64,000 nucleotides of DNA, taken from contig JAJZRA010000001.1 in NCBI GenBank assembly GCA_021847485.1, positions 20,757 through 84,756 of the forward strand. Reading direction: 5' to 3'. Position 1 is the stretch's first letter. Each line of letters begins with the position of its first letter. This DNA is from a bacterium. GTDB taxonomy: Bacteria > Elusimicrobiota > Elusimicrobia > Elusimicrobiales > UBA9959. This document shows, piece after piece, positions 42,960 through 62,201 of the stretch. Both the position numbers and the translations under genes were made by a program. The notes below the pieces were generated by a model, which saw only the letters and a program-made list of their open reading frames with translations, made no database searches and was not told where the DNA came from.

Positions 42960-43421
42960 ATGACGCGGAGAAGGCCCGGCCAGACCCTTGTCGAGGTGGT
43001 AATGGCGACCATGATAGCCGCCATGACGACCACGGCCGTCTTTTCCGTCATCCTCTCCAGTTTCGTCGGAGGCGCGAAGGCCGACAAGCGCGACACGGCG
43101 GCGGCCATCATGCGCCGCGCGCAGGAGACGCTCCGGAGCTACGTGAGCGTGGACCCTTATAACTCGGTTTATTCGGCCGGCCCTTTAGGCAGCCCCGGCC
43201 GCTGGCCGGCGGACAACTCCGGCACCTGGGCGCTGCGCGCGGGCCCTCACGATATTTCCTCGCTGCTGACCGGCACGCCGCTGGCCGGCGCGGGCGCGTC
43301 TTTTACGTACACGGTTGCCAACAGCGACTGCCTGGGCCTGATCCCGGCTGGCGGGGATCTGGGCCCGAACGGGGAGTTCGCCTGCAAGACGGTGGTGTTC
43401 AATCTCGTCTACCCGGACTGA
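42960..43421 (+). CDS. Minor pilin (PilV-like)
   Basis: RRPG|QTLVEVVMA prepilin-like motif. Confidence 0.75.
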   Translation: MTRRRPGQTLVEVVMATMIAAMTTTAVFSVILSSFVGGAKADKRDTAAAIMRRAQETLRSYVSVDPYNSVYSAGPLGSPGRWPADNSGTWALRAGPHDISSLLTGTPLAGAGASFTYTVANSDCLGLIPAGGDLGPNGEFACKTVVFNLVYPD

Positions 43422-43423
43422 CC

Positions 43424-47220: not shown

Positions 47221-47278
47221 CGGTAAAGAATTCTATAATATTACGCGGGGGCGCCGCCCCCGGGCCAAGGAGAGCCGC

Positions 47279-48083: not shown

Positions 48084-51000
48084 GTGCGCAAGACCTACCC
48101 CGTCCTCGGCCACTCGATGCGCTTCGCGCTGGAGCCCGGCGACGCCGTGGAGGCCGAGCCCTGCCCGCCGGAGGAGTTGAGGGCGGGGGAACTGGCTCTG
48201 CTGGTAAAATGGGAAGGCTCCCGCCCCGGCGGCTACGTGGTGCACCGCGTGCTGCTCAACCTGGAGCTGGCCGGCCGCCGCCTGCTGCTGACCAAGGGCG
48301 ACGCCAATCTGCTGCCGGACCTCCCTCCGCGGGCGTTCCAGCCGGTGGGCCGGGCCCTGGCCGGCGGGTCCCCGCCCCGCGTCCCGTGGCCCCTCGCCGC
48401 GGCCTATTCCTGGGCGGCCGGCCGCCTGCTCTCGGCCTGCGTCTTCCTGGTTTATTACCTGCTGCGCGCCCTGGCGGCCCTGCCGGCCTTCAGCCGGCCG
48501 GCCGTCAACGCCCTGGCCCTGCTCTGGGAGACACGCGTTTATCCGAGGCTGCCGGCCCTGCTCGCCGCGCCGGTGCGCCTGGCCCCGGCGGCCGCGGCGC
48601 GCCCTCTCGTCCGGAGCGGCCGGCTGGCCGCCGGCGAGACCTGGTCCGGCGAGGTTACCGTGGCCGATTACCTCATTATCCCGCCGGGCGTCGCCGTGAC
48701 GGTGCGGCCAGGCACCCGGATCTCCTTCGTCAGGCGGGAGCCCTGGTTCTTTCCCGTGCTGCGCGCCGGGGAGGGGCCGCGCGAACTGGACAGCCGCCTG
48801 GCCAAGATCCTGGTCTACGGCGAGTTGCGCGCGGAGGGGGGCGCCGGGGCCCCGGTCGTCATGGGCGGGCCCTCCTTCGGCGGCCTGCACGCGCTGGGCG
48901 GGGGCCGCATCTCGCTCTCCGGCTGTTCTCTGGAAAACTCCGGCGGCGCGGCCCTGAGCGCCTGGGACCATTCCCTGGCCGCGGCCTCGCGCTGCTCGTT
49001 CGCCTCCTGCGCTCGCGGCGCCGAGGCCTTCGGCTCCGGCGCCCTGTCGCTGGACGCCTGCTCCTTCGGGGCGCCGGCCGGCCCGGCCGCGCGCGCCTGC
49101 GACGGGGCCTCGCTGCTGCTTTCCCGCTGCGCGGTCTCCGCCGGCGGCGGCCCGGCCGTAGAGCTCTCGGGTTCGGCTTTCGCCGGGCTCTCCGGCCTTT
49201 CGGTCTCGGACTGCGCCGGCGGCCTTTCCGCCTCGGGCGGGGCCGCGGTCCTGTTGAGGGGCTGCGCTTTCTCGGGCTGCTCAGGTCAGGCCGCGGAAGC
49301 CGGCGACGGCGCCTCTTTCTCCGCCGTCGCCTGTTCCTTCTCCCGTGGCGGCGCCGGCCTGGCCGTCCGGGGGCGGGCCCGCGTTAGGCTGGAAGCCTGC
49401 TCCTTCTCCGCCAACCGCGGCCCCGCCGTCAGGCTCTGCGGCCCCGCCGCCCTTCGCGTCCGGGGTTGCGCCTTCGCGGGCGGGGGGAGCGGCATCGAGG
49501 GCGCGGGCAGGCTTTCGGCGGACATCGAGGGATCGTCTTTCGTCTCGGCCGGAGGCCCGGCCCTGCGTTTCGAACGACCTGCCCGGGTGGAGGCCTCCTC
49601 GCTGACCATTTCCGACTGCCGCGCGGGACTGGTGCTGTCGGGGGCGGCGGCGGCCGTCTGCCGCGGCCTGCGAGTAGAGAGTACCGCGGGCCCCGCCCTG
49701 CTGGCGGAGGACTGCCGGGACCTGCGCGTTACCGGCGCGTCCTTCTCCGGCTGCTCCTCCGGAACCGTCCTCTCCGGTATCACCGCGGCTTCGCTGAGCG
49801 GCTGCTCTTTCTCCGGCGGGGCCGGCGCGGGCTGCGCCGTCTCCGGCCCCGCCCGCGCCCGGCTGACGGGCTGCGGTTTCTCCGGCGGCGGGCTGAAGCT
49901 CTCCGGCGCAGCGGAAGTCTCCGGAGAGGACTGCTCCTTCTCAGGCCGGACGGGCCCGGCCGTGCAGGCCTGCGGGGCGGCCGCCCTGGCGCTGAGCCGG
50001 GCCTCTTTCTCGTCCGCCGGCCCGGCCGCGGCCGCGTGGGACTCGGCCTCGCTTTCCCTGACGGGCGCGCGCGTCTCGTCGGGAGGGGGGCCGGCCCTGG
50101 CCGTCTCGGGCCGGGCCTCGCTGGCCTGCTCCTCCTGCGCCGTCTCCGCCGTCTCCGACGCGGTCGGCGTCTCCGGCGGCGCCCGCGCGCTGCTCGAGGG
50201 CAGCCGCCTCTCCTCGGCCGGCGGCGCCGCGCTGAACCTGGGGTCCGGCTCGGCTGCGGCGCTGGGCTGCGAGCTGAACGGCCGCGGCGGCGTTCTGGCG
50301 ACCGGCGGAGAATTGCGGCTCGAGGATTCCCGCGTGAACGCCTCGGCTTACGGGATAGACTCCTCGGCCGCCGTGTCCGTCAGCGGGACCAGCGTCCGCG
50401 GCGGCGCGGAGGGGGGAGCCAGGCTGACCGGGCCGGGTTCAGTTCGCGGGCTGTCCGTAGAGGCCGCTCCCTATCCCGGCATTTCAGCCGGGCCCGAAGT
50501 GGACGTCTCCGGCGCCGTCTATAACGGCCGGCCTTGGAGCCGTCCCGCCGCCCCGGCGCGCGGTCCGGCCGCCAGGCGCCTGCTCTTCTCCTTCGCCGCG
50601 GCCACGGCGGGGCTGCCCGTCCTCTCCTCCGTTTACCGGCTGATCTACGCCGCCGCCGCGCGGCTGGCCCCCGCGCTGCTAGGCGTGCGCGGTCTGCGCG
50701 CCGTCTATCTCTACCGCGGGATGACCGAGCGGGACTGGGTCCCGGGGCTGAGCGACATGGACCTGGCTTTCGTCCTCGACGCGCTCCCGCCGGCGGAGGA
50801 CCGGCGCGCCTACGCGGGCCTCAAGACCCGCCTTTCCGGCTTCAGGACGCTCTTCCCTTTCACCGGCGAGGCTCTGGTGGCCTCTTTCGGAGAGCTCGCG
50901 GCCTTCCTGCCCGCCTGGGGGATAAAAGGCTCGGAGTTCCGGCGCACGGCCCGCCTGCTGGCGGGCGAGCCGCTCCCGGCGGGGCCGGCCGTCCCCGGCC

Positions 51001-51980
51001 CGGGGGATGACACCGAAGCTTTCTATTCCTACACGCTGCTGATGCGCCACTTTTTCGAGAGCGGGGCGCCTGAGAACTTCCTGCGCCGCAACTGCCTTAA
51101 GAACCTGGCGGATATCCGCCGCTACCTGGACGTCTCGTCCCCGGAGCGCGGCTCGCGCGGGGCTTACGCGCGGGCGGCCGGCCTGCCGCTGGACGCTTAC
51201 TCCGGTTTTCCGCGGGAGCGCAGCGCCTTCCTGGCCTTCTCGGCCCTGCACGCGGCCGCGGCCGGGCGCGCCCGCTGGCGCCCGGCCGGCGAAGCCGCCG
51301 CCGGAGGCGGCGGCTGGTTCAACGTTCCGGTCTTCGAGGCCGCCTGCCGCGGCCTGGCCCGCCGCGCCGGCTTCGACGTGGGGGTCGCGCTGGATTCCCT
51401 CTACCGGGTCTATGTGGTGCTTCCCGACGAGCGGGCCGGGGACGAAGCGGCTTTCCGCAGCGCCTGCGCGGCCCTGGCCGCGGCGCGCGCCTCCGAGCCG
51501 GCGCTGGGAGCCTCGCCGCTGGTCCTTACGGCCTCCTCCTTCGCTCTGCTGGCCCGCCTGCCCTATCTCAACAATCCGCTGCTCTGGGCCGACGCCGCGG
51601 CCGCCCCGGCCGGCTCCGGCCCGGAGGACGGCGGCGTGCGCACCTTCGGCCTGCCGGGCCTGCCGGAACCGCCCGGTCCGGCGGAGCTGCGCGCGGCCGC
51701 CGTCTACGCGGCGCGCCATTTCCGCGCGTCGTGGCGTTCGCTGTGGGGGGAGATGCCGCCGCACTATTTCTATACCCGCGTCTGCGGCCTGGAACTGCTG
51801 CTGCGGACCGGGGCCAGCCCGGCCTTCAGCGGCCCGGAGGGCCTGCGGGCGGCGCTGGCCGCCGCGGGGGGCGCCGCCCCGGACTGGCGCGCCTTCCTGG
51901 CCGGCGGGGCGGGGGCGGAGAATTACGAACATATAGCGGCGCGGGCCGCGGCGCTGGGGAGGCTGGCCGATGCGGCCTGA
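48084..51980 (+). CDS. Fusion: S24/S26-like peptidase + right-handed beta-helix + Pol-beta-type nucleotidyltransferase
   Basis: GHSM...PGD, VVHRV, LTKGDAN; ETWSGEV..LIIPPGV..VRPG then repeated CSFS/GC coils; VYLYRGM..VPGLSDMDL; GTG after AGGAG. Confidence 0.7.
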   Translation: MRKTYPVLGHSMRFALEPGDAVEAEPCPPEELRAGELALLVKWEGSRPGGYVVHRVLLNLELAGRRLLLTKGDANLLPDLPPRAFQPVGRALAGGSPPRVPWPLAAAYSWAAGRLLSACVFLVYYLLRALAALPAFSRPAVNALALLWETRVYPRLPALLAAPVRLAPAAAARPLVRSGRLAAGETWSGEVTVADYLIIPPGVAVTVRPGTRISFVRREPWFFPVLRAGEGPRELDSRLAKILVYGELRAEGGAGAPVVMGGPSFGGLHALGGGRISLSGCSLENSGGAALSAWDHSLAAASRCSFASCARGAEAFGSGALSLDACSFGAPAGPAARACDGASLLLSRCAVSAGGGPAVELSGSAFAGLSGLSVSDCAGGLSASGGAAVLLRGCAFSGCSGQAAEAGDGASFSAVACSFSRGGAGLAVRGRARVRLEACSFSANRGPAVRLCGPAALRVRGCAFAGGGSGIEGAGRLSADIEGSSFVSAGGPALRFERPARVEASSLTISDCRAGLVLSGAAAAVCRGLRVESTAGPALLAEDCRDLRVTGASFSGCSSGTVLSGITAASLSGCSFSGGAGAGCAVSGPARARLTGCGFSGGGLKLSGAAEVSGEDCSFSGRTGPAVQACGAAALALSRASFSSAGPAAAAWDSASLSLTGARVSSGGGPALAVSGRASLACSSCAVSAVSDAVGVSGGARALLEGSRLSSAGGAALNLGSGSAAALGCELNGRGGVLATGGELRLEDSRVNASAYGIDSSAAVSVSGTSVRGGAEGGARLTGPGSVRGLSVEAAPYPGISAGPEVDVSGAVYNGRPWSRPAAPARGPAARRLLFSFAAATAGLPVLSSVYRLIYAAAARLAPALLGVRGLRAVYLYRGMTERDWVPGLSDMDLAFVLDALPPAEDRRAYAGLKTRLSGFRTLFPFTGEALVASFGELAAFLPAWGIKGSEFRRTARLLAGEPLPAGPAVPGPGDDTEAFYSYTLLMRHFFESGAPENFLRRNCLKNLADIRRYLDVSSPERGSRGAYARAAGLPLDAYSGFPRERSAFLAFSALHAAAAGRARWRPAGEAAAGGGGWFNVPVFEAACRGLARRAGFDVGVALDSLYRVYVVLPDERAGDEAAFRSACAALAAARASEPALGASPLVLTASSFALLARLPYLNNPLLWADAAAAPAGSGPEDGGVRTFGLPGLPEPPGPAELRAAAVYAARHFRASWRSLWGEMPPHYFYTRVCGLELLLRTGASPAFSGPEGLRAALAAAGGAAPDWRAFLAGGAGAENYEHIAARAAALGRLADAA

Positions 51981-52986
51981 CCCGGTCATAAGCGCGCTCA
52001 TCATCACGCGGGGGCGGGAGCCCCTGCTGCGCGATTGCCTGGCGGCCCTGCGCGCCGCCGGTCCGGCGGAGGTCATCGTGGGCGTGAACGGGGAGGATCC
52101 CGCCTCGCTGCGCGCGGCCGCGGATTTCCCGGGGACCCGGGCCGCGGCGCTGCCGCGGATGTGCCGCGGCGAGGCCCGCAACGCGCTGGCCGCGCTGGCC
52201 TCGGGGCGCTGGCTCTGCTTTCTCGACGACGACACCGTGCCTCCGCCGGGCTATTTCGACAGGCTAGCGGCGCTGATCGCCGCCGACCCCGGGGCCGCCG
52301 TCTTCGGCGGGGGGCAGCTGCCGTCGCCGCGCGCCGGGGCCTTCGAGACGGCCGCCTACTGGACGCTGGCCTCGCGCTGGGGTTCCGGCCCCTTCGCCGA
52401 GCGCTTCCGCGCCGCCGAAGGCACCCGCCGGGCGGGGCCCGAAAAGTTCATCCTCTGCAACCTGGCGCTGGACCGGGAATTCCTGCGGCGCGAAGGGCTC
52501 GCTTTCGAGGGACACCTGACCAGCGCCGAGGAGAACCTGCTGCTCAACCGCATGGCCGCCGCCGGCGCCGCCATGGCGCTCAGCGGGGACCTGAACCTCG
52601 TGCACCGGCGCCGCGCCGCGCCCGGGGCTTTCCTGCGGCAGACCTTCTCCTGCGCCCGGGGGCGGGCCCAGATAACCCTGCTCAGCCGGCGGGGTTTCCA
52701 CCCGTTCACGCTGCTGCCCGCGTGCGGCCTGCTGGCCGCCGCCGCGCTGGCCGTCCTGCGGCCGGGGTGGCTGGCGGCCGCGGTCTGCGGCTACGCCGCC
52801 TGCTGCGCCGCCGCGGCGGCCCTTTCCGGCGCTCCGGCCCGTCTGAAGCCCGGCGTGGCGGCGCTGTTCCCGGCCGTCCACCTGGCGTACGCGGCGGGGC
52901 TGCTGTGGGGGGCGGGCGAAGCCGCCGCGGATAAGGTTTTCAGCGCGGGCCGCCCGGCCCGCTGCAGCTGCGAAGGAAATCCCTGA
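51970..52986 (+). CDS. Glycosyltransferase family 2 with C-terminal membrane segments
   Basis: LIITRGR..LRDCL, ARN, LCFLDDD, CNLA, AEE, HRRR. Confidence 0.82.
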   Translation: MRPDPVISALIITRGREPLLRDCLAALRAAGPAEVIVGVNGEDPASLRAAADFPGTRAAALPRMCRGEARNALAALASGRWLCFLDDDTVPPPGYFDRLAALIAADPGAAVFGGGQLPSPRAGAFETAAYWTLASRWGSGPFAERFRAAEGTRRAGPEKFILCNLALDREFLRREGLAFEGHLTSAEENLLLNRMAAAGAAMALSGDLNLVHRRRAAPGAFLRQTFSCARGRAQITLLSRRGFHPFTLLPACGLLAAAALAVLRPGWLAAAVCGYAACCAAAAALSGAPARLKPGVAALFPAVHLAYAAGLLWGAGEAAADKVFSAGRPARCSCEGNP

Positions 52987-53941
52987 GCGCGTCCGCGCTC
53001 CGCTCCGGCCCGGGGCCGGTAACGAACGTCCAGAAAGAAGCGTCCCTGATCAGGCCGGCGGCGGCGCGCAGGCGGGAGAGCAGTATGCCCGCTTTGGCCG
53101 CCGCGTCGGCGGGGGAAGGCCTCAGGAAATATTCCGCCATCTGCGGCACCCCGTGCCCGGCCACGAGCGCCGCCGCCAGCGCGGCCGCGGCGGGGGCCGA
53201 CCCGCACCTCTCGATGCGCGGGGCCGGGCCCCGGCGCAGCAGGAAAACGTGGGCCGGCCGGACCGGGCCGGAGGCCAGGCGCCCGGCGGCGCCGGCTGGA
53301 ACTAGGCGCTTCGGCGGATAATGGCGGCGGCGCAGGAGTTCCGCGCCGGGGAAGCGGGCAAGGTGGGGGCTGCCCCCGTCAAGCCCCACGCGCAGGGGGA
53401 AAGGCAGCAGGCCGGCCGGGGAGAGCAGCGGCGTGTCGTCGGAGATCAGCGCGAAGGCCGGGTCCCGCAGAAGCTCCAGCAGCAGCGTGGTCTTGCCCGT
53501 GCCCTGAGACCCGCAGAAGACAAGCCCCCCGGCCGCCGAGGCCAGCGCGCCCGCGTGCAGCCGGTGTAGCCCCCTCCGGTCCAGCCATTCGCCCGCGCGC
53601 GAGAGGACCAGCAGGTAAAGCAATTCCCGCAGCAGGTGCGGTTCCCCGGCGGAGACCCGGCATTTGCCGGAAACGTAATCCAGTTCGCAGAGGGCCCCTT
53701 CGGGGTACCAGACTTTCCTCGTCCCGGGAGGGGAGGCCAGCACCGTCCATTTGGCGCGGGCGAACAGCGCGCGGCCGGGCGGGCGGGGGACGGGGGCGAG
53801 CTCGGCCAGTACGTCCACGTCGGGAGGATCGCTCCCGGGGGCGGCGAAGGCCGCGAGGTCGGCGGCGAGGCCGGCCACCGCGGCGGCATCGCCGGCCGCG
53901 CGCACCCGGCAGCCGTGCACCAACAGGCAGGCCCGCGTCAC
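52940..53941 (-). CDS. HPr-kinase-like (HprK-related) kinase
   Basis: LHAGAL...GSQGTGKTT, LISDD, PFP; GTG start overlaps the upstream stop (GTGA). Confidence 0.78.
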   Translation of the reverse strand: MTRACLLVHGCRVRAAGDAAAVAGLAADLAAFAAPGSDPPDVDVLAELAPVPRPPGRALFARAKWTVLASPPGTRKVWYPEGALCELDYVSGKCRVSAGEPHLLRELLYLLVLSRAGEWLDRRGLHRLHAGALASAAGGLVFCGSQGTGKTTLLLELLRDPAFALISDDTPLLSPAGLLPFPLRVGLDGGSPHLARFPGAELLRRRHYPPKRLVPAGAAGRLASGPVRPAHVFLLRRGPAPRIERCGSAPAAAALAAALVAGHGVPQMAEYFLRPSPADAAAKAGILLSRLRAAAGLIRDASFWTFVTGPGPERSADALRDFLRSCSGPGGPR

Positions 53942-54903
53942 GCGCCCTCCCTGAGGCGGCGCAGCGTCCGCCTGAAGTTGTCCGGCGTGTCGGTGCGCAG
54001 CACCTCGGCGCCGGGCGGGAGGCGGCAGATGAACTCGGTGAGCATCGCGCCGGGGGCCATCTCGACGAAGAGCGAGGCCCCCGCGGCGGCCATGGCCTCC
54101 ACCGATTCGCACCACTTGACCCTGTGGTTGGCCCCGCGCAGCAGCGCGCGGCGCAGGCCGGCGCCGTCGAGATGCGGCCTGGCGTCGCAGTTGGCGTAGA
54201 CCGGGAAGGCCGGGTCCGCGAAGGGGCGGGAGTCGAAATAGGGGCGCAGCTCCGCGGCGTAGGCGTCGTAGGCGGAGGTGTGGAAGGCGTTGGGCTCGGG
54301 CGAGACGGTCAGCCGGTGGCGGCGCCCGGCGAGCGCCCGCTTCAGCCTGCCCACCGCGCCGGGCGAGACGCCGACGAAGCCTATCGAGGGGCGGGAGAAA
54401 TAGGTGATGAGCTCGCAGAAATCCCCGGCGGAGCGCAGCGCCGCGGCCGCCGCCTGCAGGGCCCGGCGCGGCACGCCGTAGACCGTGGCCAGCCGCGTCG
54501 GGAAGCGCAGGTTGTGGGGCTGGCCGCGGAGCAGCATCTCGCGGGCCGTGCCCAGGCAGTCCTCGGCGGAGAAGACGCCGGCGAAGGCGCAGGCGCTGAA
54601 CTCGCCCATGCTGCGCCCGGCGGCCATGTCCGCCGCGGCGCCGCCGGCGCGCAGCGCGCGGGCCACGGCGAGCGACAGGTAGAGCGTGACCTCTATGAAG
54701 ACGCTGGGATGGGGGGTGTCGGGAGGCGGGAACAGCAGGGACCTGTCCCCTTCGAACATGATCCGGCGCAGGTCGAACGGGCTGGCGGGGGCCAGCCGGT
54801 CCAGCTCCCTCCTGACCGCCGGGACGCCGCGGTAGAGGTCCAGGCCCATGCCGGGGTACTGCGTACCCGAGCCGGGGAAGAGGAAGGCCGTCCGGGGGCG
54901 CGC
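53938..54903 (-). CDS. FabD-like acyltransferase (atypical; canonical start missing)
   Basis: AFLFPGSGTQYPGMG, GRSMGE, AFHT, VKW..SV, FVEMAPG; first in-frame ATG (54849) lies inside the conserved N-terminal motif. Confidence 0.8.
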   Translation of the reverse strand, partial: ARPRTAFLFPGSGTQYPGMGLDLYRGVPAVRRELDRLAPASPFDLRRIMFEGDRSLLFPPPDTPHPSVFIEVTLYLSLAVARALRAGGAAADMAAGRSMGEFSACAFAGVFSAEDCLGTAREMLLRGQPHNLRFPTRLATVYGVPRRALQAAAAALRSAGDFCELITYFSRPSIGFVGVSPGAVGRLKRALAGRRHRLTVSPEPNAFHTSAYDAYAAELRPYFDSRPFADPAFPVYANCDARPHLDGAGLRRALLRGANHRVKWCESVEAMAAAGASLFVEMAPGAMLTEFICRLPPGAEVLRTDTPDNFRRTLRRLREGA

Positions 54904-54904
54904 G

Positions 54905-55009
54905 CTACGGCTTGAAGGCCGACGCGACTTCGCTGATCTTACCGTGGGATTTCACCTGCGGCTTCTGGTATTTCTTCTGCTTCTGCTGGGGTTTCTTCGG
55001 CTGTTTCAT
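54905..55009 (-). CDS. Putative RiPP precursor with lasso-type leader, MKQPKKPQQKQKKYQKPQVKSHGKISEVASAFKP
   Basis: Not in the ORF track; GGAGG 7 nt before the ATG; ATGA overlap with the PqqD stop; YxxPxVxxHG leader motif. Confidence 0.78.
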   Translation of the reverse strand: MKQPKKPQQKQKKYQKPQVKSHGKISEVASAFKP

Positions 55010-55287
55010 TCCGCAGCCTCCGGCGAGAGGATTTTGAGTCTGGAAAGGTCTTCGATGAAAGCGGCCACGTCGGCGGCCGCCTGCGCGGGCGGGATGCCGT
55101 ACTCGGCGGCGAGGGCCTCGGCTATCTTGGCCGGCCGGCGGCCCGCGGCGAGCAGCTCCCAGACGAAAGTGCCGGTCCCGTTGGCGGAATAGTACTCGGA
55201 GGTCCGGAGGTCCAGGATGACGGCCTCGTCCCCGGTCCTGCGCCAGGCGATAGTCTTCGGTACGGGGCTTTTCTTGTCCGCTGCCAT
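55006..55287 (-). CDS. PqqD-family RiPP recognition element (RRE)
   Basis: IAWRRTGDEAVILD..EYYSANGTGTFVWELL...LAAEY......DVAAFIEDL..IL. Confidence 0.9.
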   Translation of the reverse strand: MAADKKSPVPKTIAWRRTGDEAVILDLRTSEYYSANGTGTFVWELLAAGRRPAKIAEALAAEYGIPPAQAAADVAAFIEDLSRLKILSPEAAE

Positions 55288-55296: not shown

Positions 55297-56205
55297 CTAG
55301 CAAACTCGCGCGGGCGCGTGGCACGGGAAAATGCCGGGGCGCGTCCGTTCGCCGCCGAAGAAGCGCCGGAGGCCGCGGTCCGCCCGGCCGAGCGCGCGCC
55401 CGGAGTAGGGGCAGCTCCTGACCGAAAGGTCCGCGTCCACGAACAGGATCTCGCCGGCGGCGGCCGCGCAGTCCCGGCGCCCGGGCCGCACGCAGCCGCG
55501 CGAGAAACCGTCCGGCGCGGCGGCGGCCAGCGCGGCGGCGAGGCGCCTGGAAGGGGCGGCCTTGCCGCCGGAGCGCGGGGAATACATGACCGTCCTGGCG
55601 CCGTGCGCGCCGAGGCGCCGCGCCAGGGCCAGCAGGCGGCGGACCCCGGCGGCGCCGGGCCGCGCCGAGAAGAGGCAGGAGGAGACGTGCACGAAGAGCC
55701 CGGCGCCGAGCGCGGCGGCCACGGCGGCTTCGGCCTTGCGGAAGGAGCCGGGCCCGGCCAGCGCGTCGTGGCGGCTCCGCTCGGCGGAGTGCAGGCTGAT
55801 CATCGCCAGCGAGAGGCCCGCCGCCGCGAGTTCCGCCGCGCGGGCGGCCCCGAGGCGCTGGCCGTTGGTGTCGAGCTGGGTGAAGAGGCCGAGCCGGGAG
55901 GCCAGCCGCACGGCGGCGTCCAGCCCGGGGTAGAGCAGCGGCTCGCCGCCGAAGAAGGCGACGCGCGGTATCCCGGCCGCGGCGGCTTCCTTCAGGAGGC
56001 GGCGCAGGCGCGCGGGAGGGATGTCGGGGCCGGCGGGGCCGCCGCGGTACTTGCAGTGGCGGCACGCGAGGTCGCAGCGCGACGTCAGCCCGACGTAGAG
56101 CGTGTCCGGCGTGCCGGGCGGCAGGCCGGTGAGGCGGCGTTTGAGCACGGCCATGTCCAGGAGCGCGCGGGGCGAGAGGCGGAGTTTACCTGCTGCGGAG
56201 GCCAT
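55297..56205 (-). CDS. Radical SAM enzyme with Twitch/partial SPASM-like C-terminus
   Basis: CDLACRHC, FGGEPLL, TNG, ISLHS; C-terminal CAAAAGEILFVDADLSVRSCP and further Cys. Confidence 0.87.
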   Translation of the reverse strand: MASAAGKLRLSPRALLDMAVLKRRLTGLPPGTPDTLYVGLTSRCDLACRHCKYRGGPAGPDIPPARLRRLLKEAAAAGIPRVAFFGGEPLLYPGLDAAVRLASRLGLFTQLDTNGQRLGAARAAELAAAGLSLAMISLHSAERSRHDALAGPGSFRKAEAAVAAALGAGLFVHVSSCLFSARPGAAGVRRLLALARRLGAHGARTVMYSPRSGGKAAPSRRLAAALAAAAPDGFSRGCVRPGRRDCAAAAGEILFVDADLSVRSCPYSGRALGRADRGLRRFFGGERTRPGIFPCHAPARVC

Positions 56206-56227
56206 ACGGGAATTCTATAATATACTC
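56206..56227. promoter_or_regulatory. Overlapping bidirectional -10 elements, leaderless on both sides
   Basis: TATAAT (+, 56216-56221) and TAGAAT (-, 56212-56217), each 6 nt from its ATG. Confidence 0.6.
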
Positions 56228-56989
56228 ATGCTGGTGATTAAGGCCGGCGGCAGCGTGCTGACCCGCAAGGGGGACGTACCGGTCTTCGACCGGGCGGCCG
56301 CCGCGCGCCTGGCCGCGGAGCTCGCGCTGCTCCGGGAGCCCTTCATCCTGACGCACGGCACCGGCTCTTTCGGCAAACCTCCGGCCGTGCGCTACGGCTA
56401 CCTCGGCGGAAAGATAGCGCCGGGCGCGGCCCCGGTGGAGCGCATCAACGCCTCGCTGCTGGAGCTGCACCGCGCCTTCCTCGCCGAGCTGCTGGCGGCG
56501 GGGGTGCGGGCCGCGAGCCTCCCCGGTCCGGAAAATTTCGTCCTCAGGGCCGGGCGCCCGGTACCGGCGGACCCGGCCGCCCTGGCCGGCCTGCTCGGCC
56601 GCGGCGCGGCGCCGGTGGTGTCCAGCGGCATCTTCCCCGACGGGGCCGGCGGGGGGACGGTAGTCTCCAGCGACGCCCTCGCGGCCGGGCTGGCCCGCCT
56701 GTTCCGCCCCAGGCTGGCCGTCTTCCTGACCGACTCCGACGGCGTCACCGGCCCCGGCGGAAGACCGCTGCGCGAGGCCGGAGCGCGGGAGCTGCTGCGC
56801 GCCTGCCGGCCGGCGCCGGGCGACGTCAGCGGCGGCATGGCCGGCAAGGCCGCCCAGCTGGCGCGCATCGCCGCCCTCGGGATCCCGGCGGCGGTGACGG
56901 ACGGGCGCCGCCGCGGCTGGGGGGCCAGGCTCGCCTCGGGCGCCCTGCCGGGCGGCACCTTCGTCCGGCCCGGCCGAAGGCCGGCTTAA
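56228..56989 (+). CDS. Isopentenyl-phosphate-kinase-like amino-acid-kinase family protein
   Basis: VIKAGGSVLTRK, HGTGSFGK, VSSD, TDSDGV, DVSGGMAGK. Confidence 0.82.
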   Translation: MLVIKAGGSVLTRKGDVPVFDRAAAARLAAELALLREPFILTHGTGSFGKPPAVRYGYLGGKIAPGAAPVERINASLLELHRAFLAELLAAGVRAASLPGPENFVLRAGRPVPADPAALAGLLGRGAAPVVSSGIFPDGAGGGTVVSSDALAAGLARLFRPRLAVFLTDSDGVTGPGGRPLREAGARELLRACRPAPGDVSGGMAGKAAQLARIAALGIPAAVTDGRRRGWGARLASGALPGGTFVRPGRRPA

Positions 56990-57016
56990 GATTTGATATC
57001 ATAGTCCCCTGTAAAG

Positions 57017-58060
57017 ATGACCACTACCCGATTGTCCCTGAGCGGCCTCTACCGGCTCCCCTGGAGCGTGCCTGACAACATTATCTCGTGGATAGAGCCC
57101 ACCAAGAACTGCAATCTCTCCTGCCCCGGCTGCTATTCCCTTAATTCGCCGGGCGCGCACCGGCCCGCGGCCGAGGTCTCGGCGGAGCTGCGCCGCATAG
57201 CCGAAGGGGCCAGGTCCGACGTGCTGGCGATAGGCGGCGGGGAGCCGCTCACCTATCCGGGGCTGACGGAGCTTACGGCGGAGGCTAAGGCCCTCGGCTT
57301 CAAGCCTTTTCTCAACACCAACGGCCTGCTGGCCACGGCGGAGCGCCTGAAGGAGCTTAAGGCCGCCGGCCTGGCCGGCGTAACCTTCCACGTGGACAGC
57401 CTGCAGAACAGGCCCGGCTGGGAAGGCGCCGACGAGGAGAAGCTCAACGCCCTGCGCGCCGGGCTAGGGGCCCTGTGCCGCCCGCTGGGCCTTACCTGCT
57501 ATTTCAGCATGACCGTGACCGGCTCCAACCTGCCCGGCGTCCCGGCGGTCCTGCGCTGGGCCAGGGCCAATCCTGCGACGGCGCACATGGCGCTTTTCAT
57601 CTCCTACAAGGAACCGGCGGCGGGCGGGACCGCCTCCGCCGGCGCCGAGGCGCCTCTGCCGGAGGTATGGGCCCGGGCCGCGGAGGCCGAGCCGGGCCTC
57701 GAGGCCGCCGGCTACGTCAATTCCGCGCTCAAGTTCTCGAAGGCCAAGTGGCTGGTCTCGCTGGCCGCCGTCTCGCCTTCCGCCGGTGTGCTCGGCTATT
57801 TCGGGCCCCGGGCCCTCGAGGCCCTGCAGGCGGTCCCGCACCTGCTGCGCGGGCGCTATCCCGGCAGCGCCGCCCCGCGCTGGCAGCGGGCGGGGCGCTT
57901 GTTCTCGCTGCTTACGCTCTGGGACCGCGGGGCGCGCCGCGCCGCGCTGCGCGCTTTCCTGGAGCCGGCGGCCTGGACTTCCCCTGTCTGGCTGCAGCCG
58001 CTCGTCTTCATCGAGCCGGACACCCTGGTCAAGGACGGGCGCCCCGTCTTCTTCCTGTGA
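57017..58060 (+). CDS. Radical SAM enzyme of unknown function
   Basis: CNLSCPGC, GGGEPL, NTNG, FHVDS. Confidence 0.85.
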   Translation: MTTTRLSLSGLYRLPWSVPDNIISWIEPTKNCNLSCPGCYSLNSPGAHRPAAEVSAELRRIAEGARSDVLAIGGGEPLTYPGLTELTAEAKALGFKPFLNTNGLLATAERLKELKAAGLAGVTFHVDSLQNRPGWEGADEEKLNALRAGLGALCRPLGLTCYFSMTVTGSNLPGVPAVLRWARANPATAHMALFISYKEPAAGGTASAGAEAPLPEVWARAAEAEPGLEAAGYVNSALKFSKAKWLVSLAAVSPSAGVLGYFGPRALEALQAVPHLLRGRYPGSAAPRWQRAGRLFSLLTLWDRGARRAALRAFLEPAAWTSPVWLQPLVFIEPDTLVKDGRPVFFL

Positions 58061-58866
58061 TGGTCCTGCTGGAACGCCTTTCTTCCGCCCGCGCGCAGCT
58101 GCCGCTGCTCGCGCTGCTCTGCTTCCTGTACGCGGCCTCCCTGATGGGCCTGCCGCTCACCGGCGACGCGCTCAGGCTGGGCCTCGCCAATTACGCCTTC
58201 ATGCAGCTGGTCTATCTGGCGGACCGGTACTTCGCCCCGGCGGAGGACGCCGCCAACGGCGTGCGCCCGCCGGAGCCGCTGCCGGTGCCGGGCTCGGTCT
58301 TCTTCTTCGCGCTGGCCGCGGCGGCGGCCTATATCGCCTCCTTCCCGCGGCAATGGGTGTTCCCGGCGGCCGGCCTGCTGCTCTTTTTCCTCTATTCCTT
58401 CCCGCCGCTAGGCCGGCTGCGGCTCAAGAACTTCTTCCTGTCCAAGACGCTGATCAACGCCTCGCTCTTCACGGCGGCGGTGACGTTCTCCCCGGCGCTG
58501 CTCAGGTGGGGGGCGGAACCGCCGGTGCTGGCGGCCGTCGCGCGCGCCGCCGCCGGGATGTTCCCCGCGGCCCTCTGCCTGACGGTGCTGCTGGACGTGC
58601 GCGACGCGGCCGGGGACGCGGCGGCCGGGGTCAGGACGCTGCCGGTTGTCCTGGGGGCCCGCCGGGCTTCGCTGGGCGTAGCGGTACTTGCCGCGGCCGC
58701 GGGCCTGCTGGCCTGGCACGGCGGGTCCCGCTTCGGGACGGCTTTCTACGCGGTCCTCGCGGGGGCTTCGCTCTTCGCGGCGGGGCGTGGCCGGCTCTAC
58801 TTCGAGGGCTGCCTGCTGGCGCTCAACCTGCTGGCGGCCTGCGCGCTTTTCGGGGGATGGAGGTAA
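58060..58866 (+). CDS. UbiA-family prenyltransferase
   Basis: YLADRYF..EDAAN, YS..RLK, LDVRDAAGD..GVRTLPV; several TM helices. Confidence 0.82.
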   Translation: MVLLERLSSARAQLPLLALLCFLYAASLMGLPLTGDALRLGLANYAFMQLVYLADRYFAPAEDAANGVRPPEPLPVPGSVFFFALAAAAAYIASFPRQWVFPAAGLLLFFLYSFPPLGRLRLKNFFLSKTLINASLFTAAVTFSPALLRWGAEPPVLAAVARAAAGMFPAALCLTVLLDVRDAAGDAAAGVRTLPVVLGARRASLGVAVLAAAAGLLAWHGGSRFGTAFYAVLAGASLFAAGRGRLYFEGCLLALNLLAACALFGGWR

Positions 58867-58867
58867 C

Positions 58868-59896
58868 GTGGCGAAGCTTCACGAGACGTACCGGCTCAGG
58901 ACGCGGGAACGGGTCTATGCCAGGATAGCCGCCTGGCTGCGGGCCGAGGCCCGCGGGCTCGAGCCCTCTTTCGCCCGGCAGGTGGCGGACTACCCGCTCA
59001 GGCGCGGCAAGGCCGCGCGGGCCGCCCTGCTGACGCTTTTCTACGGGGCCTGCGGCGGCCGGGACGGGCGCGCCGCCGTCGACGCGGCGGCCGCCTACGA
59101 GATGCTGGAGTCGTGGGGTATCGGGCGCGACGACATCCTCGACGGGGCGCTGCTGCGCCGCGGGGGCCCGGCGCTGCACGTCAAGTACGGCCTGCCCTCG
59201 GCGCTGAACGCGCTGGACTACCTGCACGTGCTGGTCTTCAAGTTCATCCTGCGCTCGCGGGCCCTCGGCGCCGGGCAGCGGGACGCGCTCTTCGGGCTGT
59301 TCGCCGAGGCTTCGCGCCGGACTCTGGCCGGCCAGCACGAGGATATCCGCAGCCGCGGCCTCCCGCTGGAGCGCCTCACCGAGGCCAAATGCCTAGCCCT
59401 GGCCGGGGGGAAGACGGCCTACTATACCGTCTATTACCCGTGCCTGGCCGGAGCGCTGCTGGCGGGGCGCAAGGAGCCGCCCGCCCTCGCGGACTTCGCC
59501 TGGAGGATCGGGACCGCGTTCCAGCTCATCGACGACGTGCTCGACGCCGAGAACGAAGGCGGCGGGCGCTTCGGCAAGGCGGTGGGCAACGACATCCGCG
59601 AGCGCAAGCGGACGCTGGTCCTCTTGCGCGCCTACCGCGCGGCTTCGCCCGCGGAGCGCGGGTTCCTGCGGCGTCTCTACGAGGATTTTTCCGCCCCGCC
59701 GCGCGAGGCCGACGTCCGCCGGGCGCGCGCGCTGATGCTGCGCCTCGGGGCGCCGGCCGAAGCCAGGCGGACGGCGGAGGGGCTGGCTGCCTCGGCGCTG
59801 GAACTCTTCGAGCGCCGGCTCGCCCCGGGGCTGCGGCCGCGCGAGGCCGGGATCCTGCGCGGGCTGCTCGGCTTCCTTACCGGGAGGGACCATTAG
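58868..59896 (+). CDS. Polyprenyl diphosphate synthase
   Basis: GKAAR, DDILD..RRG, GQ..D, KTAYY, FQLIDDVLD, DIRERK; GGAGG-TAAC-GTG. Confidence 0.9.
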   Translation: MAKLHETYRLRTRERVYARIAAWLRAEARGLEPSFARQVADYPLRRGKAARAALLTLFYGACGGRDGRAAVDAAAAYEMLESWGIGRDDILDGALLRRGGPALHVKYGLPSALNALDYLHVLVFKFILRSRALGAGQRDALFGLFAEASRRTLAGQHEDIRSRGLPLERLTEAKCLALAGGKTAYYTVYYPCLAGALLAGRKEPPALADFAWRIGTAFQLIDDVLDAENEGGGRFGKAVGNDIRERKRTLVLLRAYRAASPAERGFLRRLYEDFSAPPREADVRRARALMLRLGAPAEARRTAEGLAASALELFERRLAPGLRPREAGILRGLLGFLTGRDH

Positions 59897-59966
59897 GCGC
59901 CCGTCCGTCCTCCTGCCGGGCTGCCGCTCCCTGGCCCTCGAGGACCGCTGCAGGACGGTCCTGCCT

Positions 59967-60980
59967 TTGATCACGGCGGCGACGCTGGATTCCCTGCCGG
60001 CGTCCTTTCCGGCCGCGTCCTTCCCGGGCGGCGCCGCCCGGGCCGGCGCGGCCGCCGGCAGGCTGCTGCGCCCGCCGGCCAGGCTTTACGTCGGGCGGAT
60101 GGGCAAGCGGCTGCGCCCGCTGATAACGGCCGTCGTCCTCGAAGGCCTCGGCCGGCGGCCCGGCCGTTTCGCCGGGGCCCTCGGCGCGATAGAGCTGATG
60201 GAGGCCTCGACCGTCAGCTTCGACGACATCATCGACCATTCCGACGTCCGGCGCGGCGGCCCGGCCACGCACGTCCTTTACGGCCGCGGGCGCGCCTACC
60301 TGGCCTACCAGGCCGCCTATAACTGGGCCTACCGGGCCTTCCTGGACCCGGCCCTGCCGCTGGAACCCCGGCGGCGGGCCGAACTGCTCTCCTCGCTGGC
60401 CCGCGAGATCTTCGCCTACGGCTACGGCCAGGCCTCGGAACTCCGGTGGAGCGCGCGCCGCCGCGCGCCGTCGCCGGGGGAGTACCTGTCGATGACCTGG
60501 GACAGGATCCGCTTCCTCTCTTTCAACGGGCCGCTGCGCATAGGGGCGCTGCTCGGCGGGGCGCCGCGGGAGGCCCTGCCGCGCTTCGCGGCCGCCGGCT
60601 CCTGGCTCGGCATGGCCTACCACCTGCACGGCGACGAGCTCAACCTGTTCCCGCGCTCCGCGGAGTGGGGCAAGCCCCTCGCCGACGACATCACCGGCGG
60701 CCGGTATACCTTCCTCTACCTGACCGCTATGCGGCTTTCCTCCGCGCCGCGCCGCCGCCTGCTCGCGCGGGCGCTGGGGGACCGCCGGATTTCCGGCGGG
60801 GCCCTTAAAAATGTTATAGATATAGTCCGGGACAGCGGCGCCGTCGCCGAGAACCGCAGGAAGATAGGCGTCTTCCACCGCCGGGCGGCGGCGGCCTTGA
60901 AGGGGCTGCCGCTGGCCGCCGGGAGCCGCCGCCTGCTGCTGGACCTCGCACGTTACATGGCCTATGACAGGACGAAATAG
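59967..60980 (+). CDS. Second polyprenyl synthase-like protein, degenerate second Asp motif (start may be 59892)
   Basis: GKRLRP, DDIID..RRG, GQ; SARM reads HGDELN and KT is replaced by RI. Confidence 0.82.
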   Translation: MITAATLDSLPASFPAASFPGGAARAGAAAGRLLRPPARLYVGRMGKRLRPLITAVVLEGLGRRPGRFAGALGAIELMEASTVSFDDIIDHSDVRRGGPATHVLYGRGRAYLAYQAAYNWAYRAFLDPALPLEPRRRAELLSSLAREIFAYGYGQASELRWSARRRAPSPGEYLSMTWDRIRFLSFNGPLRIGALLGGAPREALPRFAAAGSWLGMAYHLHGDELNLFPRSAEWGKPLADDITGGRYTFLYLTAMRLSSAPRRRLLARALGDRRISGGALKNVIDIVRDSGAVAENRRKIGVFHRRAAAALKGLPLAAGSRRLLLDLARYMAYDRTK

Positions 60981-60981
60981 A

Positions 60982-61692
60982 ATGAAGCTTCTCGTCAGCC
61001 CCGCCGACCTGCGCGAGGCCGCCGTGGTCGCGCGGTCCGGCGCCGATATCCTCGACCTCAAGAACCCGGCCGAAGGCTCGCTCGGGGCCAACTTCCCGTG
61101 GGTGCTCGCCGCCGTGATCCGGCGCCTGCGCCGCCCCGGGCTGGAGTTCAGCGCCGCCATAGGCGACCTCGGGTTCCAGCCCGGCACCGCCGCGCTCGCC
61201 GCCCACGCCGCGGCCTCGCTCGGGGCCGACTACGTGAAGGCCGGCCTCTACGGGGTGAAGGACCTGCGCCGCGCGCTGCCGCTGGCCGCCGCCGTGGTGA
61301 AGGGCGTCAGGACCGGGCGTCCCCGCGCCCGGGCCGTGATCGCGGGCTACGCCGACTGGCGCCGTTTCGGCGGCCTGGCCCCGCTGGACCTGGTGCGCGC
61401 CGCCCGCAAGGCCGGCGCCGGTCTGGTGATGCTGGACACGGCGCTCAAGGACGGCCGCTCCCTTTTCGACAATATGACCCACCGCGAACTCGAGCGCTTC
61501 CTGGCAGCGGCCCGGAAGGCCGGGCTGGGCACGGCGCTCGCCGGGTCCGTCAGGGCCGAACACCTGCCCGCGCTGGCCGCGCTGGGGCCCGACATCGTCG
61601 GGCTGCGCGGCGCCGTCTGCCTGGGCGGGGACCGCCGCCGGCGGGTCTGCCCGCGGCGTTTGGCCGAGCTGAGGCGCGCATGCGGCGCTTGA
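60982..61692 (+). CDS. mfnB: (5-formylfuran-3-yl)methyl phosphate synthase (4-HFC-P synthase)
   Basis: MKLLVSP, GADILDLKNPAEGSLGANFPWV, SAAIGD, DYVKAG, GYAD, MLDTALKDG, ALAGS, DIVGLRGAVC. Confidence 0.9.
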   Translation: MKLLVSPADLREAAVVARSGADILDLKNPAEGSLGANFPWVLAAVIRRLRRPGLEFSAAIGDLGFQPGTAALAAHAAASLGADYVKAGLYGVKDLRRALPLAAAVVKGVRTGRPRARAVIAGYADWRRFGGLAPLDLVRAARKAGAGLVMLDTALKDGRSLFDNMTHRELERFLAAARKAGLGTALAGSVRAEHLPALAALGPDIVGLRGAVCLGGDRRRRVCPRRLAELRRACGA

Positions 61693-62201
61693 CCCCGCTC
61701 TTCCCCGGGCCCCGCGGCCTGGCCGCCTGGCATAAGGCTTTCCTCGGGCGCGATCCTTTCGGGGGCTGCGGCCCGGCGCCGTCGGCCGCGTTCTTCCGGC
61801 CCGCCGCCCGGCTGTGCCGCCTGCCTTCCCCGGCCGAGAAGCTCCTGCCCCGCTCCCTTCCCGCCGCCGTCAGAAGGGAAGCCGTCATGGCCGTGCGCCT
61901 GTGGCAGGCCTCGCAAAAGGTCACGGAGGACCTCGTCCGGAGCGGCAGGTCCCTGGCCGGCATGGACGCGGACATGACGATGAATTTCGCGATGGCCCTC
62001 GGGAACTACTCCCGCTTCCTGCTTTTTTCCTCGCGCGGGCTGGCGCCGGAGGCGCAGCTGGCGCTGCACCGCGCTTTCGCCGCGGAGATGACCGCCATGC
62101 CGGCCGCGCTGGCCCTGCGCCGGCCGGGGGCGCGCTTCTCGCCCGCCGCTTCCGCCGGGCGCCTGGCCGCCGCCTTCGCGGCACTGGAGGACCGAAGATG
62201 A
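61680..62201 (+). CDS. Hypothetical protein, possibly a degenerate isoprenoid-synthase fold
   Basis: Coupled to both neighbours; AVRLWQASQKVTEDL resembles the AVEL..AS.IHDD helix. Confidence 0.5.
   Translation: MRRLTPLFPGPRGLAAWHKAFLGRDPFGGCGPAPSAAFFRPAARLCRLPSPAEKLLPRSLPAAVRREAVMAVRLWQASQKVTEDLVRSGRSLAGMDADMTMNFAMALGNYSRFLLFSSRGLAPEAQLALHRAFAAEMTAMPAALALRRPGARFSPAASAGRLAAAFAALEDRR

Follow-up and report, generated by a model that had tools for sequence, protein, structure and literature searches.

We analysed a 64,000-nt window of contig JAJZRA010000001.1 (assembly GCA_021847485.1), which comes from a member of the Elusimicrobiota; "the window" refers to this whole stretch, and all coordinates are positions within it. 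It contains a 34-codon open reading frame (ORF) that lies between the genes for a PqqD-family RiPP recognition element (RRE; RiPP, a peptide that is made by the ribosome and modified after translation) and a FabD-like acyltransferase. In our judgement what this ORF encodes is probably, though by no means certainly, a precursor from which a small modified peptide is made, one that depends on the RRE and is not a lasso peptide; its pathway would be an Elusimicrobial form of the type known from linear polyphosphorylated peptides (LPP). LPPs were described from Bacillota by Popov et al. (Nat Commun, May 2026, PMC13381572). An earlier note on this DNA had proposed a non-lasso RiPP class that reuses a lasso-type leader, and that proposal is essentially right.

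The putative precursor gene, its leader and the RRE

The features on which the argument is built are the following.

54905-55009 (stop included), minus strand: 34-aa precursor peptide, from direct reading and translation
55017-55021, minus strand: GGAGG ribosome-binding site, inside the PqqD coding sequence and 7 nt upstream of the peptide ATG
55006-55287, minus strand: discrete RRE of the PqqD family, 93 aa (PF05402, E 5.8e-20)
Peptide layout: Lys-rich variable N-terminus; leader Y14-x-x-P17-x-V19-x-x-H22-G23-x-I25-S26-x-V28-A29; predicted core S30-A-F-K-P34

The peptide ATG occupies 55009-55007 on the minus strand, and the frame of 34 codons closes at 54905. The ORF, its GGAGG site and its overlap with the PqqD stop had all been picked out in the earlier note and are confirmed in the sequence: the PqqD TGA and the peptide start share the letters ATGA, an overlap that is kept in 11 of 11 sequences compared. 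Across 11 compared sequences the ribosome-binding position reads CCGGAGGC in seven, and CCTGAGGC, CGAGGGGG or CGGGAGAC in the other four. An ORF of this size is uninformative by itself in a stretch of 74% G+C, the last 18 kb of which hold 109 ORFs of at least 25 aa.

When the short ORFs downstream of homologous RREs were collected and aligned, as had been suggested, the peptide proved to be kept in every one of the 10 congeneric loci examined, its identity being 71-82% and indels numbering zero. Across codons 21-34, the variable sites number 2, 0 and 11 at codon positions 1, 2 and 3, respectively. For codons 14-34 the mean pairwise dN is 0.067 and dS is 1.137 (dN/dS of about 0.06); the corresponding values for the Lys-rich codons 2-13 are 0.445 and 1.021. 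The acyltransferase gene overlaps codons 26-34 and the stop of the peptide in another frame (27 nt of overlap in relatives). All five variable sites in this overlap are third positions of the peptide and are silent there, while the same five sites alter the acyltransferase frame (dN 0.176, dS 0). Given that the variation in the overlap is silent in the peptide and changes amino acids in the acyltransferase, we conclude that selection acts on the peptide frame. Judged by these substitution patterns, the 34-residue ORF is a real gene under purifying selection at the amino-acid level, the acyltransferase overlap included.

Seeded scans located the peptide at 16 species-genome loci, in metagenome-assembled genomes (MAGs) titled Elusimicrobia, Elusimicrobiales or bacterium, and at 26 metagenome loci. 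Among these are 24 different peptides, 34-49 aa long when counting starts at the ATG adjoining the RRE stop, every one of which ends HG(K/R)(I/L)SEVASAFKP. The earlier note had called the peptide hidden, which is only partly right: the identical peptide is already recorded as an unnamed predicted protein. A profile of the peptide run against PDB chains matched solely a designed coiled coil (E 5.6), leader-peptide chains being unmatched. At 54906-54976, the public sequencing runs X1 and X6 each hold a second contig of lower depth that covers the conserved part of the peptide only, with five differences, and is then divergent; both samples probably contain a related organism that carries a peptide gene of its own.

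In the window the leader reads Y14-Q-K-P17-Q-V19-K-S-H22-G-K-I25-S-E-V-A29, followed by SAFKP. In an alignment of 17 diverse members, Y14, P17, H22 and G23 are invariant and position 19 is V, I or L. The residue designated -1 (A29 in the window) is Ala in 16 members and Thr in one, and a Ser or Thr stands at -4 in 17/17. The sequences that come after -1 vary: SAFKP, TAFKP, GIIVRE, GADDDPVR, GHAK, DAYY and LAHSY. We also considered cleavage after A-S-A by the classical AxA rule, which would leave FKP. This was rejected: a small residue is not conserved at that place in the relatives, and 17/17 keep the small -1 residue after V or T.

The RRE has as its best NCBIfam model lasso_PqqD_Strm, at 62.8 bits and under the cut-off of 70. 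Against the PDB, its profile matched TbiB1 (2.5e-16), TfuB1 (1.1e-9), 9x8z_B (9.8e-8) and 9x90_B (1.7e-7), of which 9x8z_B is LppB according to PMC13381572. The description of a lasso-type Y-x-x-P-x-(V/I/L) leader adjoining a lasso-B1-like RRE thus holds, Y14 and P17 being invariant and TbiB1 being the closest structure. A structure prediction for the complex of RRE and peptide, another suggestion of the earlier note, scored 0.57, against 0.02 for the best of three controls, and lends the pairing weak support. The mark applied is attained by 58 of 80 solved complexes and by 2 of 110 mismatched pairs, and scores of 0.60 or below were seen for just 7 of those 80 solved complexes, as well as for both of the mismatches that passed. 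The runs concur in at least 91% of contacts, with a partner pLDDT of at least 58. Because similar B1-leader complexes have already been solved, the pass may reflect this likeness. From the motif, the likeness of the RRE to lasso B1 proteins and the weakly supportive complex prediction, we infer that the RRE would bind Y14-x-x-P17-x-V19.

Two relatives have these parts joined, an assembly frameshift being possible in each. At locus L047 (G016:C39) the radical SAM (rSAM) ORF continues in frame into the RRE, and in a 130-aa predicted protein from NCBI (P0012) the PqqD domain is joined to a precursor ending TAFKP.

Enzymes encoded around the peptide and its relatives

The genes for the rSAM enzyme, RRE, peptide, acyltransferase and kinase form one string, in which neighbours overlap or are separated by short gaps, and this string faces a glycosyltransferase family 2 (GT2) gene, a gene for a 1298-aa protein and a second GT2 gene.

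55297-56205, minus strand: rSAM enzyme, 302 aa (PF04055, E 1.6e-20)
53938-54933, minus strand: FabD-like acyltransferase (PF00698, E 2.5e-12)
52940-53944, minus strand: HprK-like P-loop kinase, 334 aa, taken from the GTG at 53944 by orthologue starts (ORF open to 54115)
51970-52986, plus strand: GT2 glycosyltransferase (PF00535, E 1.7e-11), its end overlapping the end of the convergent kinase gene
48084-51980, plus strand: 1298-aa multidomain protein, convergent on the cassette
48084-48329, plus strand: domain of the archaeal type of signal peptidase I (SpI), residues 1-82 of the 1298-aa protein (TIGR02228 sigpep_I_arch; S11, H54, D73)
Residues 114-137 of the 1298-aa protein, plus strand: hydrophobic segment
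Residues ~250-800 of the 1298-aa protein, plus strand: right-handed beta-helix (Beta_helix, E 2.5e-30)
50538-51977, plus strand: Pol-beta-type nucleotidyltransferase-like domain, residues 819-1298 of the 1298-aa protein, by fold and motif
47270-48073 (start uncertain, ORF open from 47039), plus strand: GT2 glycosyltransferase upstream of the 1298-aa gene (PF00535, E 2.2e-25)

This arrangement is well kept. Kinase orthologues occur in 14 of the 36 other genomes of the genus, and by tblastn the rSAM enzyme, PqqD protein, peptide, acyltransferase and kinase were found in identical order in 10 of the 15 regions retrieved. Among the genome loci, the RRE, peptide and acyltransferase occur together in 16/16, and the kinase, GT2 and large protein in all 15 that reach that far. 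The GT2 gene at 51970-52986 lies beside the kinase in 15/15 loci reaching that far, and also in four loci without an adjoining peptide. The upstream GT2 gene is kept in 12 of 16 genome loci; of the other four, three end too early (contig or fetched end) and one (L048) gives no match in its last 63 bases.

The Cys residues of the rSAM enzyme (C44-x3-C48-x2-C51, C177, and the C-terminal 238, 246, 265 and 295) are conserved in 14 of 14 orthologues. This pattern fits one auxiliary cluster of the twitch-like kind, not a full SPASM domain; a PF13186 (SPASM) search of the window rSAM gave zero matches, and the enzyme has four C-terminal Cys where the SPASM criterion is seven. All NCBIfam matches of the enzyme are confined to its core and far under cut-offs, and against the PDB it likewise matched through the generic core only (BlsE-type decarboxylase, 1.7e-8; PqqE, 4.9e-7), which gives no reaction.

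For the acyltransferase, comparison with the PDB aligns Thermus FabD (2cuy, E 2.9e-28), including the Ser (GRSMGE), His (AFHTS) and Arg (LLRGQ) residues. It has GSGTQ in place of GQGSQ, and an Arg replaces the His before the catalytic Ser. The best NCBIfam model is MdcH (83.5 bits), followed by FabD (76.4 bits), the cut-offs being 261-298; a separate, housekeeping-type copy sits on contig C73 of the same genome. The acyltransferase start is a GTG within peptide codons 26-27 in 10/10 relatives. The window reads GCG here (54933-54931), a change that is silent in the overlapping peptide frame (AGT to AGC). Contigs assembled from four public runs of two studies show no base difference at this GCG, although this DNA may itself stem from two of these runs. 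The public runs listed, 9 entries from 3 studies, include no RNA set.

The kinase gene and the end of the acyltransferase gene, stop included, share 7 nt. The best NCBIfam model of the kinase is HprK_rel_B (E 1.7e-4, 21 bits), then HprK_rel_A (E 3.6e-3), both far under cut-off. An AlphaFold model of the kinase (pLDDT 85.7) matched the ATP-PEPCK fold (E 2e-11, TMq 0.56-0.60), and HPr kinase shares this PEPCK-type fold. The nearest named Atlas clusters bear Hpr_kinase_C (32% of members) or ScmC. Sequence and profile searches against the PDB gave matches at the P-loop level only (HprK 1ko7, E 0.96; PEPCK, E 0.26-0.75).

A predicted leader peptidase and a predicted nucleotidyltransferase form the two ends of the opposite-strand 1298-aa protein. 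The SpI domain matches TIGR02228 with E 1.7e-5 (24.7 bits against a cut-off of 51.85), and G9-H10-S11-M12, H54 and D73 are invariant in eight of eight orthologues. Its best PDB profile matches are SEC11C (E 0.076) and SEC11A (E 0.14), both Ser/His/Asp peptidases, with the three motifs aligned. At the other end, the nucleotidyltransferase domain has an invariant motif, G61...S72-D73-x-D75, and a model with a pLDDT of 89.5 whose nearest PDB folds are AadA, AAD(9) and ANT (E 2e-3, low TM); its Atlas neighbours bear NTP_transf_2 or Polbeta. Pfam searches of the isolated N- and C-terminal parts of the protein returned nothing, even with E up to 10. Both GT2 enzymes have as their best NCBIfam model the mycofactocin glycosyltransferase MftF (E 8.7e-27 and 5e-12), far under its cut-off.

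More distant relatives combine other cores with other enzymes:

G210: cores GIIVRE and GADDDPVR (two tandem precursors); rSAM/SPASM, AMP-binding enzyme, acyltransferase, kinase
G362: core GHAK; spermidine-synthase-like/acyltransferase fusion, kinase
G182: core TAFKP; 789-aa rSAM/SPASM, acyltransferase, SpI-bearing large protein; a kinase search gave no match
G355: core DAYY; aKG-HExxH peptide beta-hydroxylase directly upstream; 380-aa SpI protein
G418: core LAHSY; 800-aa SpI protein (E 3.3e-12)

At 4623-7223 of the G355 locus (L081, G355:C1), a 772-aa protein with the aKG-HExxH beta-hydroxylase domain stands directly upstream of the 38-aa member ending DAYY; the domain matches TIGR04267 with 51.5 bits, over the curated cut-off of 40. 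SpI-domain proteins are found in three distant loci, at E 3.3e-12 (46.5 bits against the cut-off of 51.85), 3.4e-6 and 5e-6. The acyltransferase is absent from the four most distant loci. Since a constant leader is here combined with short, variable C-termini of 4-8 residues that are paired with variable tailoring enzymes, we regard these peptides as a RiPP family.

With a main-clade profile, the peptide was detected in 17 of 401 genomes drawn from the phylum; with a broader profile (A6), it was detected in 28 of the 401, in 12 of 122 genera. By family, the A6 matches fall in f1 (12/47), f8 (11/47), f6 (2/10), f7 (1/2), f2 (1/118) and f16 (0/89). An exhaustive profile search of 1.84 billion representatives, in which short ORFs are often uncalled as genes, gave 13 clusters at E of 0.001 or below; these add cores that mostly end in Tyr, and the 130-aa RRE-precursor fusion is among them. 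The genome and metagenome scans were seeded with main-clade patterns, which very divergent members outside the Elusimicrobiota could escape.

Likeness to LPP systems and alternative readings

According to PMC13381572, an LPP set comprises LppS (a signal peptidase I, SipW-like), LppB (a discrete RRE), LppK (an HprK-like kinase), LppN (an NTP transferase) and a pump resembling MsbA; the genes are named LppA/B/K/S/N/D, and the loci are rich in glycosyltransferases and often lie within capsule loci. The precursors, of 35-200 aa, carry the motif YxxPxVLxHQxIxFETxxS, alias P-x9-F-x-[T/A], with Y at -16. LppS cuts after T-1 only if LppB presents the peptide, and LppK polyphosphorylates S3 of the core. 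The same paper states that PQQ leaders share the lasso-like motif and describes LPP as restricted to Bacillota. In our literature searches we found no account of the Elusimicrobial system, or of LPP beyond PMC13381572, whose supplements may list members from outside Bacillota, or rSAM or acyltransferase genes that co-occur.

The window system resembles LPP in its non-lasso pathway with a lasso-type leader, a discrete RRE and an HprK-like kinase. It has an archaeal-type SpI with Ser/His/Asp, a nucleotidyltransferase and a glycosyltransferase setting as well. The leader also falls into the LPP register, with Y at -16, P at -13, V at -11, H at -8, I at -5 and a small residue, A29, at -1. The two differ in phylum (Elusimicrobiota here, Bacillota there) and in their cores, which have 4-8 residues here, with SAFKP invariant in the clade, whereas LPP precursors of 35-200 aa have highly variable C-termini. 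The window peptidase and nucleotidyltransferase are not stand-alone proteins but are fused in one 1298-aa beta-helix protein, and the window adds a twitch-type rSAM enzyme and a FabD-like acyltransferase. The window nucleotidyltransferase is not a PF14907 match, unlike the nucleotidyltransferases of LPP and paeninodin systems, which we take to belong to that family; the sole PF14907 match of the genome lies elsewhere (contig C57:8325-8891, 72.7 bits).

Whereas the reality of the gene, its conservation, the synteny, the register of the motif and, at the scores given above, the identities of the domains are shown by the sequences, each of the following chemical steps and the final product are inferred. 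Translation of the peptide would be coupled to that of the RRE gene through the ATGA overlap read in the sequence. The RRE would then bind the leader and present the invariant C-terminal part to the enzymes of the overlapping gene string. On the presented tail may act the twitch-type rSAM enzyme and the FabD-like acyltransferase, which keeps its Ser-His pair and the Arg that selects carboxy-acyl (malonyl-type) units. By analogy with LppK and the paeninodin kinases, the HprK-like kinase may add phosphate to a Ser, which would be S30 or else the S/T found at -4 throughout the family. The SpI-like domain of the 1298-aa membrane protein would remove the leader after A29, freeing the modified SAFKP; this site is proposed because the LPP register P-x9-x-x-[T/A], with Y at -16, places A29 at -1. 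Finally, again by analogy with LPP and paeninodin, the phosphate may be lengthened by a nucleotide or a sugar through the action of the C-terminal nucleotidyltransferase and both GT2 enzymes.

A wider form of this reading is possible, and we hold it only tentatively and as rather unlikely in its entirety. It posits an unrecognised RiPP class so far limited to the Elusimicrobiota, with a lasso/LPP leader, a core of 4-8 residues, and modular enzymes that depend on the lineage (rSAM chemistry, FabD-like acyl transfer, phosphorylation, and hydroxylation or aminopropyl-type transfer). One membrane protein would have two tasks, to cut the leader and to attach the phosphopeptide to a nucleotide or a glycan. 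What results would not be a free antibiotic but an envelope glycan or lipid that is capped with, or linked to, a peptide.

If the LPP-like interpretation is correct, LPP-type logic would extend beyond Bacillota to a distant, uncultured phylum. Its 5-residue core should make the chemistry far easier to follow by mass spectrometry than the 45-residue LPP core. Two enzyme types not reported for LPP would be added, a small twitch-type rSAM enzyme and a FabD-like acyltransferase beside which no carrier protein is seen. Hints as to which parts cooperate come from the natural fusions of peptidase and nucleotidyltransferase, of rSAM and RRE, and of RRE and precursor, and the lineage-specific cores paired with different enzymes constitute a natural test of leader-guided modularity. 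PMC13381572 leaves the end product and role of LPP unresolved.

Several observations weigh against the LPP-like interpretation. The RRE is closer to the lasso protein TbiB1 than to LppB (9x8z_B), so that shared ancestry with LPP, as opposed to convergence, does not follow. The F-3/E-2/T-1 residues of LPP are not kept, E-V-A standing in their place; likewise the acceptor Ser, at +3 in LPP, is at +1 in the window and is absent from several relatives. The SpI, kinase and nucleotidyltransferase assignments all rest on scores below curated cut-offs or on fold likeness with low TM. Compared with the LPP set, the window contig also has no MsbA-like exporter: a search for ABC exporters (PF00664) gave three matches in the genome, all on other contigs (C5, C46) and none on the window's own contig. 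The rSAM gene is beside the RRE in 15 of 16 genome loci and is missing at L034. In the window, the acyltransferase frame has no ATG, GTG or TTG ahead of FLFPGSG, the first canonical start being the ATG at 54849; the enzyme may be poorly expressed or unconventionally initiated in this organism.

The kinase raises difficulties of its own for the LPP-like interpretation. G210 and G362 carry it, yet their predicted cores have no Ser or Thr; the kinase may act on the S/T at -4 or have a target outside the peptide. Ser phosphorylation and acylation, as put forward in the earlier note, were reasonable guesses from the adjoining kinase and acyltransferase, although the kinase target is less certain than was assumed there. 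The rSAM cross-link at F-K-P and the prenylation that were proposed along with them are guesses. Moreover, a kinase-GT2 pair occurs in four genomes without an adjoining peptide, RRE or acyltransferase, and three of these give no significant peptide match anywhere in the genome. The fourth (G034) has a divergent 41-aa member elsewhere, between GT9-like and GT4-like genes (named from their translations).

These kinase-GT2 pairs bear on an alternative that we consider unlikely but that survives best among its kind, namely that the peptide serves only the rSAM enzyme and the acyltransferase as a stand-alone rSAM RiPP, the kinase, GT2 and 1298-aa protein forming a neighbouring envelope-glycan locus and the likeness to LPP being partly coincidental. 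The Ser/Thr-free cores of the two kinase-bearing loci agree with it, as do the beta-helix of the large protein, which is typical of carbohydrate-active proteins, and surroundings rich in GT2, Wzy_C and TPR genes. Against it, the 7-nt overlap with the acyltransferase gene places the kinase in the same string as the peptide, and SpI proteins accompany the peptide even at distant loci that have neither acyltransferase nor kinase. The cassette holds no other leader peptidase, and the LPP-type spacing from the leader to a small -1 residue is found in 17/17 members (Ala in 16, Thr in one).

Also comparable are the computed rSAM/PqqD/HprK-like systems of Haft (SynChlorMet ScmC-F, GeoRSP, and HprK-related kinases A and B, as titled in NCBIfam models). 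In such systems an HprK-like protein accompanies a radical SAM enzyme and an RRE of the PqqD type, and the window shares with them the co-occurrence of these three. The best or near-best NCBIfam matches of the window proteins are GeoRSP_rSAM (69 bits), ScmF (55), ScmD (25) and HprK_rel_B (21). However, every one of these scores is far under its cut-off, so that the window system is not a member; the window rSAM differs from theirs in having four C-terminal Cys and no full SPASM, and we know of no Haft system with a FabD-like acyltransferase or an SpI fusion.

A second alternative, with a lower probability still, is a precursor of a cofactor or other small molecule, as for PQQ or mycofactocin: the rSAM enzyme and RRE would alter residues at the C-terminus, and the product would be cut out and receive sugar. 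Like those systems, the window has a discrete PqqD-type chaperone together with an rSAM enzyme that would act close to the C-terminal end of a short precursor of high conservation. The last 14 residues do not vary over 25 distinct main-clade sequences, which is typical of cofactor precursors and unusual for antibiotic-type RiPPs. An rSAM enzyme with one auxiliary cluster next to an RRE, the MftF model as the best (far under cut-off) for the GT2 enzymes, and the C-terminal Tyr of many relatives point the same way. Nevertheless, cores and enzymes both differ among lineages, the patchy occurrence (28/401 genomes of the phylum) disfavours a core cofactor, no dependent oxidoreductases were identified, and the rSAM enzyme matches the PqqE and MftC models over the generic core only. 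The cassette further differs from PQQ and mycofactocin loci in that homologues of PqqB/C/F and MftD/E were not noticed in it, and in its kinase, SpI and nucleotidyltransferase.

Quite improbable, in our estimate, is a role of the peptide as a carrier or scaffold, an idea that the earlier note also raised. In it the kinase and nucleotidyltransferase would place a prosthetic group, linked through phosphate, on a conserved Ser/Thr (at -4 or +1), and the acyltransferase would load this with a malonyl-type unit. This logic mirrors that of the malonate-decarboxylase carrier protein. It draws on the acyltransferase scoring higher with MdcH than with FabD (both far under cut-offs) and keeping the malonyl-selecting Arg, on the S/T at -4 in all 17 aligned members, and on there being no acyl carrier protein gene seen in the cassette. 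It is made less likely because the relatives' variable C-termini of 4-8 residues are paired with different tailoring enzymes, which suggests that the peptide works through its C-terminus. No acyltransferase occurs in the four most distant loci, and a prosthetic group is indicated by nothing in the data.

We give very little credence to an unmodified product, whether a small basic protein or an upstream ORF that couples translation of the RRE and acyltransferase genes. The Lys-rich N-terminus and the gene overlaps on both sides would suit it, but selection acts on the amino-acid sequence, beyond a mere open frame, and the invariant residues coincide with the RRE-binding motif. The RRE-peptide fusion and the weakly supportive complex prediction speak in the same sense.

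Judged by its sequence, the peptide cannot be a lasso peptide. As the earlier note had remarked, the core (SAFKP or AFKP, 4-5 residues without Asp or Glu) is too short. The window system does share some parts with split B1/B2 lasso systems, those of the phosphorylated paeninodin type among them: a leader with Y-x-x-P-x-(L/V/I), a B1-like RRE and an HprK-like tailoring kinase. It differs from them in having no macrolactam synthetase or B2 by search of its own genome, in its short core without an acidic acceptor, and in the Ala, in place of Thr, at the lasso -2 position. The earlier observation that neither a lasso cyclase nor B2 is encoded in the window is correct and can be widened to the assembly, which is 83% complete: the B2 protease family PF13471 gave zero matches in it, and the cyclase family PF00733 gave none on the window contig and one marginal match genome-wide (contig C120, 20.8 bits), covering model positions 19-75 only in a 357-aa open frame. 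That a cyclase and protease encoded elsewhere act on a lasso precursor, as the leader motif and B1-like RRE might suggest, thus has practically no chance of being correct, given that a ring of 7-9 residues is impossible with this core and that the 83%-complete genome offers only that one partial PF00733 match.

Genomic surroundings

Divergent from the cassette, at 56222-63037 on the plus strand, lies an operon that encodes an archaeal-type isopentenyl phosphate kinase (86.8 bits, under cut-off), a second radical SAM enzyme, a UbiA-family prenyltransferase, two prenyl diphosphate synthases and a geranyl-diphosphate-2-C-methyltransferase-like enzyme. It also encodes an MfnB-like (5-formylfuran-3-yl)methyl phosphate synthase (275 bits against a cut-off of 304). 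Genes of these kinds adjoin the peptide cassette in 10 of the 12 genome loci whose upstream sequence is long enough, as they do in G182, which belongs to another family. A prenylated furan or terpenoid as the product of this operon, and a link of that product to the peptide, are open candidates.

On the other side, two adjoining large proteins at 27654-32744 (plus strand) have both a Wzy_C membrane domain, which resembles O-antigen ligase, and TPR repeats at the C-terminus, and a 581-aa TPR membrane protein is encoded at 45475-47220. Because these proteins occur together with the GT2 genes, we consider the region to be rich in envelope-glycan genes. A cluster resembling type IV pilus/type II secretion systems spans 34705-44170, with a secretin, a T2SSE ATPase and a T2SSF platform protein; within it, the protein at 42464-42958 has a prepilin N-methylation motif. 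A second T2SSE ATPase, fused to a response-regulator receiver domain, is found at 20637-23048. Elsewhere in the same genome, contig C43 (~2.6-20.2 kb) shows seven separate tblastn matches to the cassette rSAM enzyme within ~18 kb.

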